Origin: a virus
Taxonomy: Duplodnaviria; Heunggongvirae; Uroviricota; Caudoviricetes
Length of the DNA: 29,924 nucleotides
Strand: one strand, 5' to 3'
Virus record (IMG/VR): IMGVR_UViG_2541047891_000002
Shown here: positions 5,946-10,753 of the stretch, piece after piece
Numbering within the stretch: position 1 is the first letter of the stretch
Layout: each line of letters opens with the position of its first letter
Program-made: the position numbers and the translations under genes
The notes under the pieces: model-generated
The model's input: only the letters and a program-made list of their open reading frames with translations
Databases searched by the model: none
Told to the model about the DNA's origin: nothing

Positions 5946-6497
5946 ATGAGTCGCACATCACTGATTAAATTAATCCATGTAGCCCGTCGTAATCTACAAC
6001 TTGACGACGACACCTACCGTGCCTTTCTGATGCAGAACACGGGCAAAATTAGTTGCCGTGAGCTGACCGTCGCGCAACTGGAGCTGGTGCTCGATGCCAT
6101 GAAAGAACGCGGTTTTAAGAAGCAGAATAAACACCCACGCCGTCGCTTTAAGGGGCATGTCACGCCCCGCGAAAAGGTATTAAAAATCTGGCAGCAAATG
6201 GCAGAAGACGGTTTTATTGCCGATGGCAGTGATACAGCACTGGATAAATACGTCGAACGACTGACAGCCAGACGTAATGGCGGACAGGGTGTTTCCACGC
6301 TGGCGTGGTGTCACGGAGAATCGTTACAAATTGTGCTTGAAACCCTGAAACAGTGGCACATCCGCTGTATCCGTGAAGCCTTTTCCCGTTATGGACTCCC
6401 GTTGCCGGTCAGCCCGTCCGGGCGTGAACTGCGTGGCTATGATGCCATGACAGCAGCTTATGCCCGTGCAAGAAAAACACGGAGACTGGCACAATGA
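5946..6497 (+). CDS. gemA: GemA-like early protein
   Basis: Track ORF 5931-6497; start ATG 5946 with GAGGTG upstream; ~183 aa directly upstream of mor with ATGA overlap, as in Mu. Confidence 0.75.
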   Translation: MSRTSLIKLIHVARRNLQLDDDTYRAFLMQNTGKISCRELTVAQLELVLDAMKERGFKKQNKHPRRRFKGHVTPREKVLKIWQQMAEDGFIADGSDTALDKYVERLTARRNGGQGVSTLAWCHGESLQIVLETLKQWHIRCIREAFSRYGLPLPVSPSGRELRGYDAMTAAYARARKTRRLAQ

Positions 6498-6913: not shown

Positions 6914-6965
6914 ACGCCCTCAATATTCTGTTGTGACGATAAAACGTTCATTACAGGAGGGCAAC
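6914..6965 (+). promoter_or_regulatory. Candidate middle promoter region (Pm-equivalent, expected to be Mor-dependent)
   Basis: Position only: between the early terminator and the first middle-operon gene; contains TGACGATAAAAC; no element verified. Confidence 0.3.
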
Positions 6966-7526
6966 ATGCCTGAGTTTTCCCCTGCATTCCTTCATTCGCT
7001 GAATTTTGTTATACGGCCTGATGTTGAAGGTGGTTACGTTAATGATCCCACTGACCGTGGCGGCGAAACCAAATACGGCATTTCTGACCGTCGCGACGGC
7101 GTTATTGATGGCAAAACCGATGTTAACGGTGACGGGAAGCCTGATACCCGTATTAAAGATTTAACCCACGAGCAGGCGGCGCAAATCTACTGGCGTGATT
7201 ACTGGCTGGCGGCAAAGTGTAACGAATGGCCTGATGGTGTTTCCTTATTCGTCTTTGATGCTGCCGTTCAGCACGGTGTTAAACGCGCAATTCAAATCCT
7301 CCAGGCGGCAGCAGGTGTTGATGATGATGGCATCGTCGGCAAAAACACCCGCGCAGCCGTTCTGCGTGCCGACACTGACTGGCTGCTGTTGCAGTGTTTC
7401 CTGCGTCGTTCCCGCTATTACGCAGGGATTATCAAATCCAGTGCCTCGCAGGGGAAATATCTGAACGGCTGGTTTAACCGCCTGGATCTGCTCGCCAGCG
7501 TCTGCCGGGAGGTTCTGCATGGGTAA
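6966..7526 (+). CDS. GH108-family muramidase with C-terminal peptidoglycan-binding domain
   Basis: Track ORF 6933-7526; start ATG 6966 with AGGAGG 5 nt upstream; N-terminal EGGYVNDPTDRGGETKYGI motif typical of glycoside hydrolase family 108; C-terminal DGIVGKNTRAAV resembles PG_binding_3. Confidence 0.75.
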   Translation: MPEFSPAFLHSLNFVIRPDVEGGYVNDPTDRGGETKYGISDRRDGVIDGKTDVNGDGKPDTRIKDLTHEQAAQIYWRDYWLAAKCNEWPDGVSLFVFDAAVQHGVKRAIQILQAAAGVDDDGIVGKNTRAAVLRADTDWLLLQCFLRRSRYYAGIIKSSASQGKYLNGWFNRLDLLASVCREVLHG

Positions 7527-7737
7527 AGGGTGGGATGCGTCCTTTCGGTTTGGCAGACGCGAACGTTTACGACAGGAGGTGTTACATCGGGAGGCCGGAG
7601 GTCCACCACCAAAGCCAATGGATTACACAGGGCACGATGGCACCCACGGGAGCTATTACATGAAAGGCTGGCAGTCAGTCGATATGCCAGAAATTATTCA
7701 CCACTGCCAGCGTTACAGGGAAAAGCATCATGTTTAA
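7519..7737 (+). CDS. Hypothetical small basic, His-rich protein (72 aa)
   Basis: ATG 7519 overlaps the stop of the GH108 gene (coupled arrangement). Confidence 0.4.
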   Translation: MGKGWDASFRFGRRERLRQEVLHREAGGPPPKPMDYTGHDGTHGSYYMKGWQSVDMPEIIHHCQRYREKHHV

Positions 7738-8110
7738 GCGTTTCTGTTATTTGTTACCAAATTGTCTGCCGGTCATGTTGCTGGCGCTGATTCTGATTAT
7801 CAGCGTGTTTTATGGTTTGCGGGCGGTGCTGTTCTGGAATGCTGCCGTTTTCAGTGTGGCGCTGTGCTTTACCGGCACTATTTTTGATGATCTGTCCCGG
7901 ACAGGAAAAATCCGACGTTATGCTTCTATTAATGCCATTGATTTTCTTGGTGGCCTCGTCGGGTTAAGTCTTTCGGCTATTGCAACCGGGCTTTTAGAAG
8001 AAGTGCATCAGTTCACGATTTATGCTTTATCTGGCTTCTGTAGCATATGGTTTTGCTTTCGCCTCCATATCTGTCTGCGACGTTCAGTACCGTCTGGCGC
8101 GGAGGCATGA
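7730..8110 (+). CDS. Multi-pass membrane protein (126 aa), holin-like candidate
   Basis: At least three hydrophobic helices (VMLLALILIISVFYGL, AAVFSVALCFTGTIF, FLGGLVGLSLSAIATGLL); start overlaps previous stop. Confidence 0.5.
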   Translation: MFKRFCYLLPNCLPVMLLALILIISVFYGLRAVLFWNAAVFSVALCFTGTIFDDLSRTGKIRRYASINAIDFLGGLVGLSLSAIATGLLEEVHQFTIYALSGFCSIWFCFRLHICLRRSVPSGAEA

Positions 8111-8232
8111 TGTACAGAAGATTCAGTAATGAATGTTCCGGCATGGCTACGTTGCTGATGGTGATGAAGGGTATCACAGTTATTGCACTGCTTGCCGTAG
8201 TCACGGGGATCTGTCTGTTAGTTTTTCGCTGA
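8107..8232 (+). CDS. Small single-pass membrane protein (~41 aa)
   Basis: Track ORF 8047-8232; ATG 8107/8110 next to GGAGG; one hydrophobic helix ITVIALLAVVTGICLLVF. Confidence 0.35.
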   Translation: MMYRRFSNECSGMATLLMVMKGITVIALLAVVTGICLLVFR

Positions 8233-8242
8233 TGGGGGCAAA

Positions 8243-8653
8243 ATGACAAATCAGCAGGATTTATTTGAACATGATCCGGCTGTAAGCCAGTTAATGGATC
8301 ATATCGACAATATACCGGCTCCTGAGCAGGAGGCCCGCTGGCCCCGCGCGCTGGTTGAGCTGGTTGACGTTCTGGAAACAGAACTGAAACGTCAGGGCGT
8401 GGATGATGCACGGAGCATAGCCCGTAAACAGGTGATGTCCTTATCATGGTTCCTGGGGGGACGGCAGTATTACATCCCCCGGGGTGATGCACTTCTGGCA
8501 GCGTTGCGGGATGATCTGATTTACTGCCAGTTTAACGGTCGGAACATAGAGGAGCTGCGGCGTGAACATCGTCTGTCACAACCGCAGATTTACAAGATTA
8601 TTGCCCGGCAGAGAAAACTTCATTCACGGCGACATCAGCCCGATTTATTCTGA
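8243..8653 (+). CDS. C: C, activator of late transcription (Mor/C family)
   Basis: 136 aa; C-terminal block YYIPRGDALLAALRDDLIYCQFNGRNIEELRREHRLSQPQIYKIIARQRK paralogous to Mor; directly upstream of lys as in Mu. Confidence 0.85.
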   Translation: MTNQQDLFEHDPAVSQLMDHIDNIPAPEQEARWPRALVELVDVLETELKRQGVDDARSIARKQVMSLSWFLGGRQYYIPRGDALLAALRDDLIYCQFNGRNIEELRREHRLSQPQIYKIIARQRKLHSRRHQPDLF

Positions 8654-8686
8654 GTAACAGCAATCAATCGGTGCAGGCCGGTTGTG

Positions 8687-8755
8687 TTAATTAATAATAA
8701 CCCCGCCTGCAAATTCCCCTGAGTTACCCTCCTTTTATTACCGAAGGAGGGTTTC
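8687..8755 (+). promoter_or_regulatory. Candidate C-dependent late promoter region for lys
   Basis: 12-mer ATAACCCCGCCT at 8697-8708 is repeated exactly at 15903-15914 upstream of I; both followed within ~10-15 bp by TCCCC; also a near-dyad TTAATTAATAATAA at 8687-8700. Confidence 0.4.
8726..8752 (+). promoter_or_regulatory. Hairpin sequestering the lys ribosome-binding site
   Basis: ACCCTCCTT (8726-8734) pairs with AAGGAGGGT (8744-8752) around a 9-nt loop; the right arm contains the AGGAGG Shine-Dalgarno 5 nt before the lys ATG. Confidence 0.45.
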
Positions 8756-9184
8756 ATGAACGATTTTAAAAAACGTCTCCCCCGCATCATCAGAACACTT
8801 GCCATCGTGGTACTGGCGGCATGTGGTGGCTGGCAGTTGTCCGGCGATGGTGATTCATCGCTGGTTTCTGTTCAGTACCTTCCATACACAGACCAGCACG
8901 GCGAACTGACAGTTTGCCTTAACCATCACGGTCCTGATATTCAGCAACGCCCTTACAGCTATGGTGAATGCATCATGCTGTTGAAAGCAGATTTGAAGCC
9001 TGTTTATGACACGTTAAATACCCATCTGAACAGGCCACTGACAGAGGAACAAAAAAATGCACTGGCGGTGTTTATGTTCAGCGCCGGTTCTGGTGCTGTG
9101 CCCGCTCCCCGTAATAATCAGCTGCTGAATGATGATGTGTTACCGGTGCCGGGATTAATGCCGGGTATGTCGTCAGGGCTGTAA
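8756..9184 (+). CDS. lys: Lysozyme-fold endolysin homologue with SAR-type N-terminus, possibly degenerate
   Basis: 142 aa; N-terminus MNDFKKRLPRIIRTLAIVVLAACGGWQL (two Lys then a weakly hydrophobic Gly/Ala-rich segment); core YLPYTDQHGELTVCLNHHG aligns to the Y.PY.D.....T.C.GH block of SAR lysozymes; see findings for missing Glu. Confidence 0.7.
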   Translation: MNDFKKRLPRIIRTLAIVVLAACGGWQLSGDGDSSLVSVQYLPYTDQHGELTVCLNHHGPDIQQRPYSYGECIMLLKADLKPVYDTLNTHLNRPLTEEQKNALAVFMFSAGSGAVPAPRNNQLLNDDVLPVPGLMPGMSSGL

Positions 9185-9196
9185 ACAGGAGAGCGT

Positions 9197-9496
9197 GTGG
9201 ATATTTATTCAGTGCTGACCTACTCGATAGGCAGTGGCAGCACCATTGGTGGCATTTTGTGGTGGGCGGTGAGGCGTACATTTGCCAGCACGGAACGTGT
9301 GGAGCAAATCGAAAGCCGTTTAACCGCGCTTGAAACGAAGTGCGAAAACATGCCCAGTGCACAGGATTTACATGCTGTCCGGTTACAGACCGCAGAAACC
9401 AATGGTGAAGTGAAAGCGATGAACCGGCACATACAGGTGCTGACCCATCAACTGGAGCTTTTGCTCGAAAAGGCGCTCGGAGAGAACAACAAATGA
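9197..9496 (+). CDS. Membrane-anchored coiled-coil protein (i-spanin-like or releasin-like)
   Basis: GTG start 9197 with CAGGAGAG upstream; N-terminal hydrophobic helix SIGSGSTIGGILWWAV followed by a helical/coiled-coil region (EQIESRLTALETKCE ... HQLELLLEKAL). Confidence 0.5.
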   Translation: MDIYSVLTYSIGSGSTIGGILWWAVRRTFASTERVEQIESRLTALETKCENMPSAQDLHAVRLQTAETNGEVKAMNRHIQVLTHQLELLLEKALGENNK

Positions 9497-9783
9497 TTGA
9501 CGACATTCTGACGCAGGATCGCCGCCTGGTCATCCTGCGTTCACTGATGGACTGCAATAACGAGGCTAACGAATCCATTTTGCAGGATTGCCTGGATGCT
9601 TACGGGCATAACGTTTCACGTGATGTGGTTCGTGGTCAGATTGACTGGCTGGCAGAACAGCAGCTTGTCACCGTGGAAAACCTGCGCGGCTTTTATGTCG
9701 TGACACTGACCTCCCGTGGTCAGGATGTGGCTGAAGGCCGGGCTCGTGTTTCCGGTGTCAAACGTCCACGTCCCCGCTTCTGA
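9493..9783 (+). CDS. Conserved Mu-like late protein, soluble (96 aa)
   Basis: ATGA overlap with upstream gene; no hydrophobic segment; sits between the lysis genes and the D-like gene. Confidence 0.55.
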   Translation: MIDDILTQDRRLVILRSLMDCNNEANESILQDCLDAYGHNVSRDVVRGQIDWLAEQQLVTVENLRGFYVVTLTSRGQDVAEGRARVSGVKRPRPRF

Positions 9784-9791
9784 ACGGAGGC

Positions 9792-10370
9792 ATGATGGAC
9801 AGGAAAACTCGGGGACGGGCTTCAAAAGTGGATTTGCTGCCGGAAAACGTGCGCAAAACACTGCATGAAATGCTGCGTGACAAGGCAATCCCACAGGCCC
9901 GCATTCTGGAAGAAATTAACGCCCTGATTGAAGATGCCGGACTGCCTGATGACATGAAACTCTCCCGTTCCGGCCTGAACCGTTACGCGACAAACGTCGA
10001 ACAGGTAGGCCATAACCTGCGACAGATGCGTGAAATGACGTCAGCACTGACCGCAGAACTTGGCGACAAGCCAATGGGGGAAACCACAAAGCTGATTCTG
10101 GAAATGGCCCGCAGCCAGCTTTTTAAGGCCATGATGCGGCAAATCGAAAACCCGGAATCAGATGTGGATATTGACCTGCTTAAAAACGCCATGCTGGCAG
10201 CACAGCGTCTGGAATCCACGGCAATGTCCAGCCACAAACGCGAGAAAGAAATCCGTCAGGCATTCGCGGAAGAAGCGGCGAACGCTGTCAGTGAAGAACT
10301 GCGCGGGCAGGATGGCATCAGCGAAGAACTGGAGCAGCGTATCCGTGATGTGCTGCTGGGAAAAGCGTAA
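9792..10370 (+). CDS. D: Mu gp27 (D)-like protein, probable small terminase subunit
   Basis: 192 aa immediately upstream of the large-terminase region, in the position of Mu D; GGAGG next to the start. Confidence 0.65.
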   Translation: MMDRKTRGRASKVDLLPENVRKTLHEMLRDKAIPQARILEEINALIEDAGLPDDMKLSRSGLNRYATNVEQVGHNLRQMREMTSALTAELGDKPMGETTKLILEMARSQLFKAMMRQIENPESDVDIDLLKNAMLAAQRLESTAMSSHKREKEIRQAFAEEAANAVSEELRGQDGISEELEQRIRDVLLGKA

Positions 10371-10383
10371 AGGAGAAAATGTA

Positions 10384-10578
10384 ATGGCTGTTGAAACCAA
10401 AGAAAAAACGTCTGCGGAAATTGCCCTGAAACTCAAACCCATCGTCGAAGCGGCGCTGGCTGAGGAGGGCAATATTCATATCGTCACAAAAGCCGAATCA
10501 CTGTATCTGTTAATGCAGATTGTGGTTGGCCCGCGTATCGCGGGCCAGATCATCAGAGAGTCACAAATTAATCAGTAA
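10384..10578 (+). CDS. Hypothetical small protein (65 aa)
   Basis: ATG 10384 preceded by AGGAG (10371-10375) at 8-nt spacing; lies inside track ORF 10162-10578, whose upstream part overlaps the D-like gene. Confidence 0.4.
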   Translation: MAVETKEKTSAEIALKLKPIVEAALAEEGNIHIVTKAESLYLLMQIVVGPRIAGQIIRESQINQ

Positions 10579-10753
10579 TCATTGCCTCCAACAACTGATA
10601 AATATGTTTTAACAACTCCCGTTCTGACTTCACATTTTGATCAGAACCGGCAAGACACGCTGGCTGTTTATTCGTATTCATGCCAGCGATAACAAAGTCA
10701 CTTGCTATTTTTGCAATCTCAATTTTTTGGTCAATGGTCAGCTTTTCTTTCAT
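10568..10753 (-). CDS. Hypothetical small protein (61 aa) on the reverse strand between D and E
   Basis: Reverse-strand ORF with AAGAGG upstream of its ATG and a TATAAAT-like element ~35 nt upstream; AT-rich against GC-rich flanks; 3' end overlaps 10384-10578 by 11 bp. Confidence 0.4.
   Translation of the reverse strand: MKEKLTIDQKIEIAKIASDFVIAGMNTNKQPACLAGSDQNVKSERELLKHIYQLLEAMITD

Follow-up and report, generated by a model that had tools for sequence, protein, structure and literature searches.

We describe here the lysis region of a Mu-like transposable prophage of Escherichia coli, recorded in IMG/VR as IMGVR_UViG_2541047891_000002. The stretch analysed (29,924 nt, hereafter the window) holds most of the prophage from the transposase to the baseplate genes, and this report concerns the part from a muramidase gene of glycoside hydrolase family 108 (GH108) to the homologue of Mu gp27. 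The region seems to be a reduced form of the Mu late lysis cassette, in which the GH108 muramidase works as the endolysin and the outer membrane is disrupted without a dedicated gene; we judge this explanation moderately probable. Three genes are central to it:

6966–7526, + strand: GH108 muramidase that also has a PG_binding_3 domain; its gene heads the middle operon (PF05838, 85.6 bits; PF09374, 52.1 bits; PHROG 315, endolysin)
8756–9184, + strand: truncated homologue of gp22/R21-type lysozymes (lys), 142 aa, without the catalytic Glu; residues ~40–113 are a partial fold and residues 114–142 a tail
9197–9496, + strand: DUF2730 protein, homologue of the Mu releasin gp25, 99 aa, GTG start, assigned by PF10805 and by identity to Mu gp25

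The 99-aa protein, whose open reading frame (ORF) begins 12 bp after the lys-family ORF, matches DUF2730 (PF10805) with 59.9 bits against a cut-off of 24.9, over profile positions 16–101 of 102. It aligns without gaps to Mu gp25, a protein of equal length, over 98 of 99 residues (43% identity, 70% positives, E 6e-31), and the dN/dS (ratio of nonsynonymous to synonymous substitution rates) of its gene is 0.05–0.11. The main PHROG is phrog_736 (function unknown), with a weak secondary match to a holin PHROG, phrog_1296 (E 3.7e-4). A Gly/Ser-rich hydrophobic N-terminal segment (residues 5–25) precedes a helical remainder; there is no Lys or Arg in the four residues before the transmembrane domain (TMD) and there are three in the 15 residues after it. 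By the positive-inside rule alone, an N-out/C-in topology is predicted, as annotated and reported for gp25. The helical domain would then be cytoplasmic, and on this prediction an inner-membrane spanin (i-spanin) is ruled out. Type I DUF2730 proteins, those similar to gp25, have been linked to signal-anchor-release (SAR) endolysins, and gp25 is a membrane-tethered cytoplasmic protein (PMC9239132). The first-pass annotation had proposed either a releasin-type factor or an i-spanin without a partner. Family, identity to gp25, position, length and predicted topology all point to the former, and judged by its sequence the protein is of the releasin type and not an i-spanin. The N-terminal anchor, the helical, coiled-coil-like domain and the position in a lysis cassette would suit an i-spanin as well, alone or with an unrecognised partner. 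We regard that reading as close to negligible, since the protein is a full-length homologue of gp25, which is distinct from the Mu i-spanin gp23, since it has no similarity to gp23 and no partner, and since its charges place the helical domain on the cytoplasmic side.

The gene directly upstream had been taken for lys with a normal SAR endolysin as its product. It is a truncated gp22 homologue. The Phage_lysozyme match (PF00959, 43 bits, cut-off 22.3) covers only profile positions 7–93 of 125, the alignment to Mu gp22 covers only residues 4–114 of 171 (41% identity), and residues 31–118 align to residues 29–117 of the 165 in R21/RrrD (E 6e-11). In place of about 56 residues of the C-terminal lobe there is a disordered Pro/Gly-rich tail of 28 residues with a predicted local distance difference test score (pLDDT) below 50, and tblastn found no separate ORF for the missing lobe in the window or the prophage ends. 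The position of the catalytic Glu, annotated as E37 in Mu, is Val in the window protein and reads V/A/A/D/A/D in six family sequences. Further, Asp46 is Gly in one of these (P0005) and Thr52 is Ala in another (P0004); the triad E-x8-D-x5-T is absent from the family. Among the nearest 50%-identity cluster representatives E-x8-[DC]-x5-T is kept in 78 of 84, and in a profile search of 1.84 billion cluster representatives the truncated form made up a single isolated 50% cluster, the next matches being ordinary endolysins. The AlphaFold2 model has a core (residues 40–113) with pLDDT ~70–83 and a value of 54 as a whole, and its top Foldseek match is R21, weakly and with a high root-mean-square deviation. 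As the model is poor overall, with a shallow alignment, and the Foldseek match weak, sequence homology was preferred over structure. By these residues the protein would no longer be able to act as a muramidase, and the public labels "endolysin" and "glycoside hydrolase family protein" are probably misleading. With a neighbour that looks catalytically dead, the DUF2730 protein may have no classical releasin substrate in this phage.

The truncated gene is nevertheless not a pseudogene: it has an open frame and in-frame indels, and purifying selection acts on it. The truncated form comprises five protein clusters of 138–142 aa, 63–99% identical to the window protein, with dN/dS of 0.17–0.21 overall, 0.09–0.14 in the core and 0.35–0.44 in the tail. 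Constraint is strongest in the core domain, which suggests a binding role for the gp22 relic. The relic has some selected function, one that is dispensable in the lineage of the related locus L013 described below. A fusion to the outer-membrane spanin (o-spanin) gp23.1 or to gp24 was considered as the source of the Pro/Gly tail and rejected; there was no significant peptide or DNA similarity in any frame of Mu lys–gp25, the only match being seven residues long and on the opposite strand.

The N-terminus of the 142-aa protein (MNDFKKRLPRIIRTLAIVVLAAC23GGWQL) has five Lys or Arg residues, a 9-residue hydrophobic core and the motif LAAC ending at Cys23. With these five basic residues upstream, LAAC agrees with the lipobox consensus [LVI][ASTVI][GAS]C quoted in PMC6139136, and the protein is the best lipobox candidate in the prophage. 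The consensus is found in five of the six family sequences, the remaining one (P0002) having LAVC, and all six share Cys23 and the GGWQL that comes after it. A PS00013-type rule considers ten positions before the Cys, the first six not being D, E, R or K and the last four coming from listed residues, mostly small or hydrophobic ones. By this rule all six sequences fail because the invariant Arg13 (position −10) leaves nine uncharged residues before Cys23; the Mu gp23.1 control passes. The charge-free run is 16–17 residues against 17 in the SAR domain of Mu gp22; the run contains LAAC, and its first half is strongly hydrophobic. On the sequence of this segment we give lipidation roughly even odds.

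Two related observations may be recorded here. A distant relative of 174 aa, P0055, has an intact E-x8-D-x5-T together with an apparent lipoprotein signal (MRKFDTLTGLVAGIALGVIGC21), which makes a lipoprotein endolysin with its catalytic motif kept possible, and P0014 has LTSC within a longer SAR-like segment. We found no published description of a lipoprotein or a dead endolysin in Mu-like phages.

To look for spanins, lipoboxes were scanned in six frames from every ATG, GTG and TTG start over the whole 29.9-kb window and both prophage ends, the ends being taken from the near-identical prophage of Escherichia coli TUM9757. The scan gave no ORF with a signal peptide and lipobox in 9197–9783, in agreement with the first-pass annotation, which had reported none in the frames of 9197–9500, and no convincing lipobox ORF outside lys in the window or the ends. 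Over the wider interval 8700–9800, for which such a scan had been proposed, the outcome is divided: 9197–9783 is empty, and the adjacent lys ORF is itself lipobox-like. An adjacent lipoprotein ORF had been thought to speak against the absence of spanins; the lys ORF has such a motif, but it does not qualify as an o-spanin. The remaining matches of the scan were discarded as out-of-frame ORFs inside large genes (e.g. 7255–7464 within GH108) without a hydrophobic core.

By tblastn, Mu gp23, gp23.1, gp24 and the C-terminal lobe of gp22 had no match at E<=1 in the window or the prophage ends. No other prophage protein has an i-spanin-like membrane anchor, strong TMDs being present only in the gp19-like and gp20-like proteins described below. 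A two-component spanin is consequently lacking in both parts: the topology predicted for the 99-aa protein is the reverse of that of an i-spanin, which is N-in/C-out with a periplasmic coiled-coil domain, and the prophage offers no other candidate; and there is no small lipoprotein ORF in, overlapping or beside an i-spanin gene, either in 9197–9783 or elsewhere. As for a unimolecular spanin of the T1 gp11 type, which combines an N-terminal lipobox with a C-terminal TMD, the 142-aa protein has the lipobox-like motif, but its C-terminus (VLPVPGLMPGMSSGL) is not a TMD and is predicted to be disordered. Since lipobox scan, tblastn and membrane-anchor check were all negative, the spanins are truly absent and have not just been missed in annotation. 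The picture of a compact lysis-accessory block without a spanin pair is borne out, gp23 and gp23.1 having no homologue in the prophage, and the outer-membrane disruption function stays unaccounted for in that no dedicated gene was recognised. Nor was a small cationic disruptin-like ORF recognised in the cassette, by eye only and without a dedicated scan. The gp18 homologue is basic, yet this protein is common to Mu, which still needs spanins, and two small ORFs of 64 and 61 aa between the terminase genes are not cationic. About 13% of phages of Gram-negative hosts are without a known outer-membrane disruptor (PMC6139136).

The first-pass annotation had not connected the lysis region with the GH108 muramidase, which lies five genes upstream of the DUF2730 gene (six by the annotation of the Prokaryotic Genome Annotation Pipeline, PGAP). 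The start at 6966 is that of PGAP; an alternative GTG start is found at 6933. In the Glyco_hydro_108 family the Glu of the EGGY motif is catalytic, and the motif is kept here (...RPDVEGGYVND...). There is no signal or SAR segment, and dN/dS is 0.03–0.09. GH108 is probably the working, and thereby the real, endolysin of this phage. It is present in every locus with a truncated lys or without lys. All five alleles of the truncated form have the order Mor, GH108, gp18, (gp19), gp20, C, truncated lys, 12–19 bp, DUF2730, gp26 and gp27, and none has spanins. In L013, whose DUF2730 protein is 77% identical, 205 bp without an ORF lie between C and DUF2730; there is no lys-family gene there and GH108 is present. 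The GH108 gene is also found beside full lys-spanin cassettes, in Yersinia phage vB_YpM_5, E. coli elppa5 and FDAARGOS_1059. These loci suggest a series of GH108 with a full cassette, GH108 with a dead lys and no spanins, and GH108 alone.

The window prophage has transposase, GemA, Mor and Mu-type portal genes, and its positions 8200–9800 are 99.3–99.8% identical to prophages of E. coli TUM9757, PEC422 and SE11. These near-identical prophages lie in yeaE (TUM9757), beside ecpD (PEC422) and beside an Rpn gene next to hisP (SE11), with structural genes otherwise intact at all three sites. As a near-identical cassette is found at three chromosomal sites, the phage has recently been mobile, and the reduced cassette would therefore be compatible with a working phage life cycle. 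The spanin-less cassette was found in 3 of 5,426 complete E. coli genomes, and the canonical cassette in about 41; in these commoner Mu-like prophages lysozyme, a gp23-like gene, an Rz1-like LysC, gp24 and DUF2730 are present. None of the isolated phages in the phage collection searched has the spanin-less form. IMG/VR holds two prophage-derived contigs with a protein 99% identical to the 142-aa protein of the window, and a Chromohalobacter match in the genome contig scan was spurious and out of frame.

The SE11 prophage differs from the other two in its early genes. Its repressor-region gene is a 609-bp helix-turn-helix gene (L017 1477–2085), compared with a 525-bp MerR-family gene in TUM9757 and PEC422 (L009 4619–5143), and its transposase allele also differs. 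As its lysis region is still 99.3% identical, the immunity and early regions are mosaic.

In the explanation that we favour, a C-dependent late promoter would drive three genes, those for the gp22-derived protein, the DUF2730 protein and the gp26 orthologue. The gp22-derived protein would be exported or targeted to the membrane by its short basic, hydrophobic N-terminus, with its ribosome binding site locked in a hairpin. Wall degradation would fall to the cytoplasmic GH108 muramidase, which is expressed earlier, as part of the middle operon. Being the sole late membrane protein kept in every cassette variant, the DUF2730 protein may be the late factor that gives GH108 access to the wall. As there is no dedicated disruptor, the outer membrane would either fail passively after loss of the wall or do so with help from the gp22 relic. 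Several points weigh against this explanation. In Mu, gp25 has been shown only to release a SAR endolysin (PMC9239132), and a holin-like role for DUF2730 is speculation that starts from the weak holin PHROG match. GH108 belongs to the middle genes rather than the late ones and lacks an export signal, and it need not be the lysis enzyme since it coexists with full lys-spanin cassettes. L013 is a 9.9-kb metagenome contig, so that a lysis gene elsewhere in that phage is possible. The selection estimates for lys were made at dS values of 0.8–1.5, some of which are near saturation. Further, that these prophages lyse cells is a prediction from their genes, and the explanation does not account for the conserved gp22 relic.

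The relic would have a place in a minimal, holin-less and spanin-less form of lysis, where DUF2730 would let the signal-less GH108 reach the wall and the dead, possibly lipidated relic would be kept as an envelope-acting or regulatory protein; it could be a peptidoglycan-binding outer-membrane lipoprotein replacing spanins, or a decoy substrate tuning the releasin. We consider this unlikely. Another reading makes the relic a new outer-membrane lysis factor, a lipoprotein cut at Cys23 and sorted to the outer membrane (Gly at +2), which would bind peptidoglycan through its partial lysozyme domain and replace the spanins with the help of its Pro/Gly-rich tail. It is the only ORF with a consensus lipobox in the whole prophage, with the Cys23-GGWQL stretch invariant, it stands first in the late lysis operon and is under purifying selection, its disordered tail is o-spanin-like in composition, and the loss of spanins coincides with it in all five alleles. 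Even so, the short uncharged stretch before the Cys fails the PS00013-type rule in every sequence, one allele has LAVC, and the charge-free run has the length of the Mu gp22 SAR domain. Lacking both a C-terminal TMD and an i-spanin partner, the protein is unable to bridge the periplasm. Its tail, the least constrained part, resembles neither Mu gp23.1 nor any spanin family, and the gene is missing from L013. We find this reading quite unlikely.

Two other readings were considered. The cassette could be decaying prophage debris, left when a deletion that made the prophage lysis-defective took gp23, gp23.1 and gp24 along with the 3' end of lys. Its rarity among complete E. coli genomes next to the canonical cassette, its absence from the isolated phages and the further losses in relatives (gp19 in L004, L013 and L021, lys in L013) all agree with this. 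The reading is improbable in view of the open frame, the in-frame indels and the low dN/dS across alleles, the lack of any detectable Mu-derived remnant at the junction, and the three near-identical prophages with otherwise intact structural genes. It is further weakened by the divergence of lys and DUF2730 from gp22 and gp25 (41% and 43% identity), which indicates an old lineage and not a recent deletion in Mu. Alternatively, only the spanins would have been lost, and the 142-aa protein would be a working SAR endolysin released by DUF2730 as in Mu, with another acidic residue such as Glu50 in catalysis. The basic K5-K6-R7 is kept, the counterpart of the K6/K7 that makes Mu gp22 releasin-dependent, a 17-residue charge-free segment resembles the Mu SAR domain, DUF2730 is always directly downstream, and Glu50 is invariant in the family (Val in Mu). 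The general-acid Glu is absent from all six sequences, however, and D46 and T52 vary as well, whereas 78 of the 84 relatives keep the triad; in T4/R21-type lysozymes half of the substrate cleft is made by the C-terminal lobe, which is lost here. We regard a working SAR endolysin as very unlikely.

The late promoter that the GH108 explanation places before lys was located by aligning the C–lys intergenic regions of the window, Mu and the related loci L004 and L006, with the help of the Mu promoter annotation. Three elements lie between C and lys:

8665–8684, + strand: terminator-like hairpin after C, also annotated after C in Mu
8696–8707, + strand: conserved element AATAACCCCGCC, putative late promoter, which aligns with CCATAATCCCGC in the C-dependent lys promoter of Mu
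8720–8756, + strand: hairpin in which the anti-Shine-Dalgarno sequence ACCCUCCUU pairs with the Shine-Dalgarno sequence AAGGAGGGU (8743–8751), reaching the start codon of the truncated lys

The anti-Shine-Dalgarno arm of the start-site hairpin is at 8726–8734, and the hairpin has a minimum free energy of −16.7 kcal/mol with a z-score of −3.3 in the window. Equivalent hairpins are found in the other four alleles (L004 ~5965–6003, L006 ~5966–6004, L021 ~2378–2416 and the equivalent position of L018). The five together span −16 to −29 kcal/mol and z-scores of −2.7 to −6.5, the strongest, at −29 kcal/mol, being a perfect stem of 18 bp. Over the start codon of Mu lys the stem is weaker (z −0.8). 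Covariation gives weak support, with a single compensatory pair, as coding and the Shine-Dalgarno role both constrain the 3' arm. The hairpin suggests that translation of the truncated lys is throttled or regulated.

The remaining genes around the cassette are as follows:

7519–7737, + strand: Mu gp18 homologue, 72 aa (85% aa identity to Mu gp18; PHROG 2121)
7730–8110, + strand: Mu gp19-like membrane protein with several TMDs, 126 aa (38% aa identity to Mu gp19; charge-free hydrophobic segments)
8107–8232, + strand: Mu gp20-like peptide with a single TMD, 41 aa (50% identity to Mu gp20; PHROG 19823)
8243–8653, + strand: late-gene activator C of the Mor family (Pfam PF08765, 111.7 bits; position as Mu gene 21)
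9493–9783, + strand: Mu gp26 orthologue, 96 aa, winged-helix, VpaChn25_0724 family (97% aa identity; PHROG 436; name from PGAP)
9792–10370, + strand: Mu gp27 (gene D), small terminase, right boundary (Pfam PF11985, Phage_Mu_Gp27, 180.7 bits)

On the + strand the window thus reads Mor, GH108, gp18-like, gp19-like, gp20-like, C, 142-aa lys, DUF2730, gp26, gp27/D, two small ORFs and the large terminase. The corresponding interval of Mu contains lys (gp22), the i-spanin gp23, the o-spanin gp23.1, gp24, the releasin gp25, gp26 and gp27 (AF083977). That there are only two ORFs between lys and the D-like gene, as first annotated, was confirmed to the exact coordinates. The second of them, the 96-aa ORF, overlaps the DUF2730 stop with its start (ATGA); homology and annotation gave no evidence for a role in lysis, and the gp26 orthologue belongs with the downstream terminase genes. 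Its start is a mosaic boundary. From 9493 to ~10360 the DNA is about 91% identical to Mu, D108 and SfMu, megablast finds nothing upstream, and aa identity to Mu steps from about 42–43% (gp25) to 97% (gp26) at the gene junction. As this step falls exactly between gp25 and gp26, lys and DUF2730 form a separate and old mosaic module.

Relatives vary at other points of the region. The gp19-like gene is deleted or a remnant in L004 (5206–5470), L013 (640–747) and L021 (1178–1300), and the gp20-like peptide is kept in all three. The loss of gp19 in three relatives shows that it is dispensable in this lineage, in agreement with the Mu genetics quoted in PMC9239132. An insert of two genes separates C from the truncated lys in L005 (5330–5848), L007 (117–308) and L021 (1729–2262); it consists of a 108–113-aa ORF on the − strand and, on the + strand, a 63-aa ORF whose N-terminus is hydrophobic, and looks like a moron. 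Between the small and large terminase genes, which are separated by only 7 bp in Mu, the window has the 64-aa ORF at 10384–10578 (+) and the 61-aa ORF at 10568–10753 (−). These belong to PHROGs 21398 and 25148 (function unknown) and overlap convergently at their 3' ends. A sigma-70-like promoter match lies on the minus strand at 10734–10707, and similar pairs occur in L005, L014 and L018.

Mu is the model of holin-less lysis. The mechanism of gp25 in Mu is still unknown, and the role of DUF2730 with non-tethered endolysins is an openly stated question (PMC9239132). The reduced cassette makes both the role of DUF2730 without a SAR endolysin and lysis without spanins testable, in E. coli strains with public complete genomes, SE11 included. 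It further shows an endolysin gene that has lost its catalytic residue and is still under selection, and it adds a defined case to the phages of Gram-negative hosts without a known outer-membrane disruptor. We found no published description of a reduced Mu cassette.

Among known systems, the spanin-less phages are similar in that spanins of both the two-component and the unimolecular kind are undetectable (Kongari et al. 2018, PMC6139136); the difference from phiKT, with its disruptin gp28, is that inspection by eye recognised no small, highly cationic disruptin-like ORF in the window cassette. R21 and E. coli RrrD (PDB 3HDE, 3HDF, 4ZPU) are the best solved-structure relatives of the 142-aa protein, which differs from them in having no equivalent of Glu35 and nothing past R21 residue ~117, and in an N-terminal segment that is shorter, more hydrophobic and contains a Cys. 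DUF2730 proteins are also found with non-SAR cytoplasmic endolysins (PMC9239132), and the likeness is that GH108, the probable endolysin of the window, has no secretion signal. The DUF2730 protein of the window is, however, of the Mu gp25-like type linked there to SAR endolysins, and the adjacent SAR-endolysin gene is degenerated, not absent.

The closest system is the Mu cassette itself (Chamblee et al. 2022, PMC9239132; AF083977). Both have a C-dependent promoter element, a first gene of the lys family with a basic N-terminus, a 99-aa gp25-type DUF2730 protein directly before gp26, gp27 and the terminase, and gp18, gp19, gp20 and C upstream. The window cassette differs by the lack of gp23, gp23.1 and gp24, and by its gp22 homologue, a truncated protein without the catalytic Glu in which a lipobox-like motif takes the place of the Gly-rich SAR domain. 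Its middle operon is headed by an extra GH108 gene, and its lys and gp25 homologues are ~41–43% identical to those of Mu, against 97% for gp26. With no sign yet of a new mechanism, the cassette is a variant of the known Mu-type lysis cassette and not a new kind of system.

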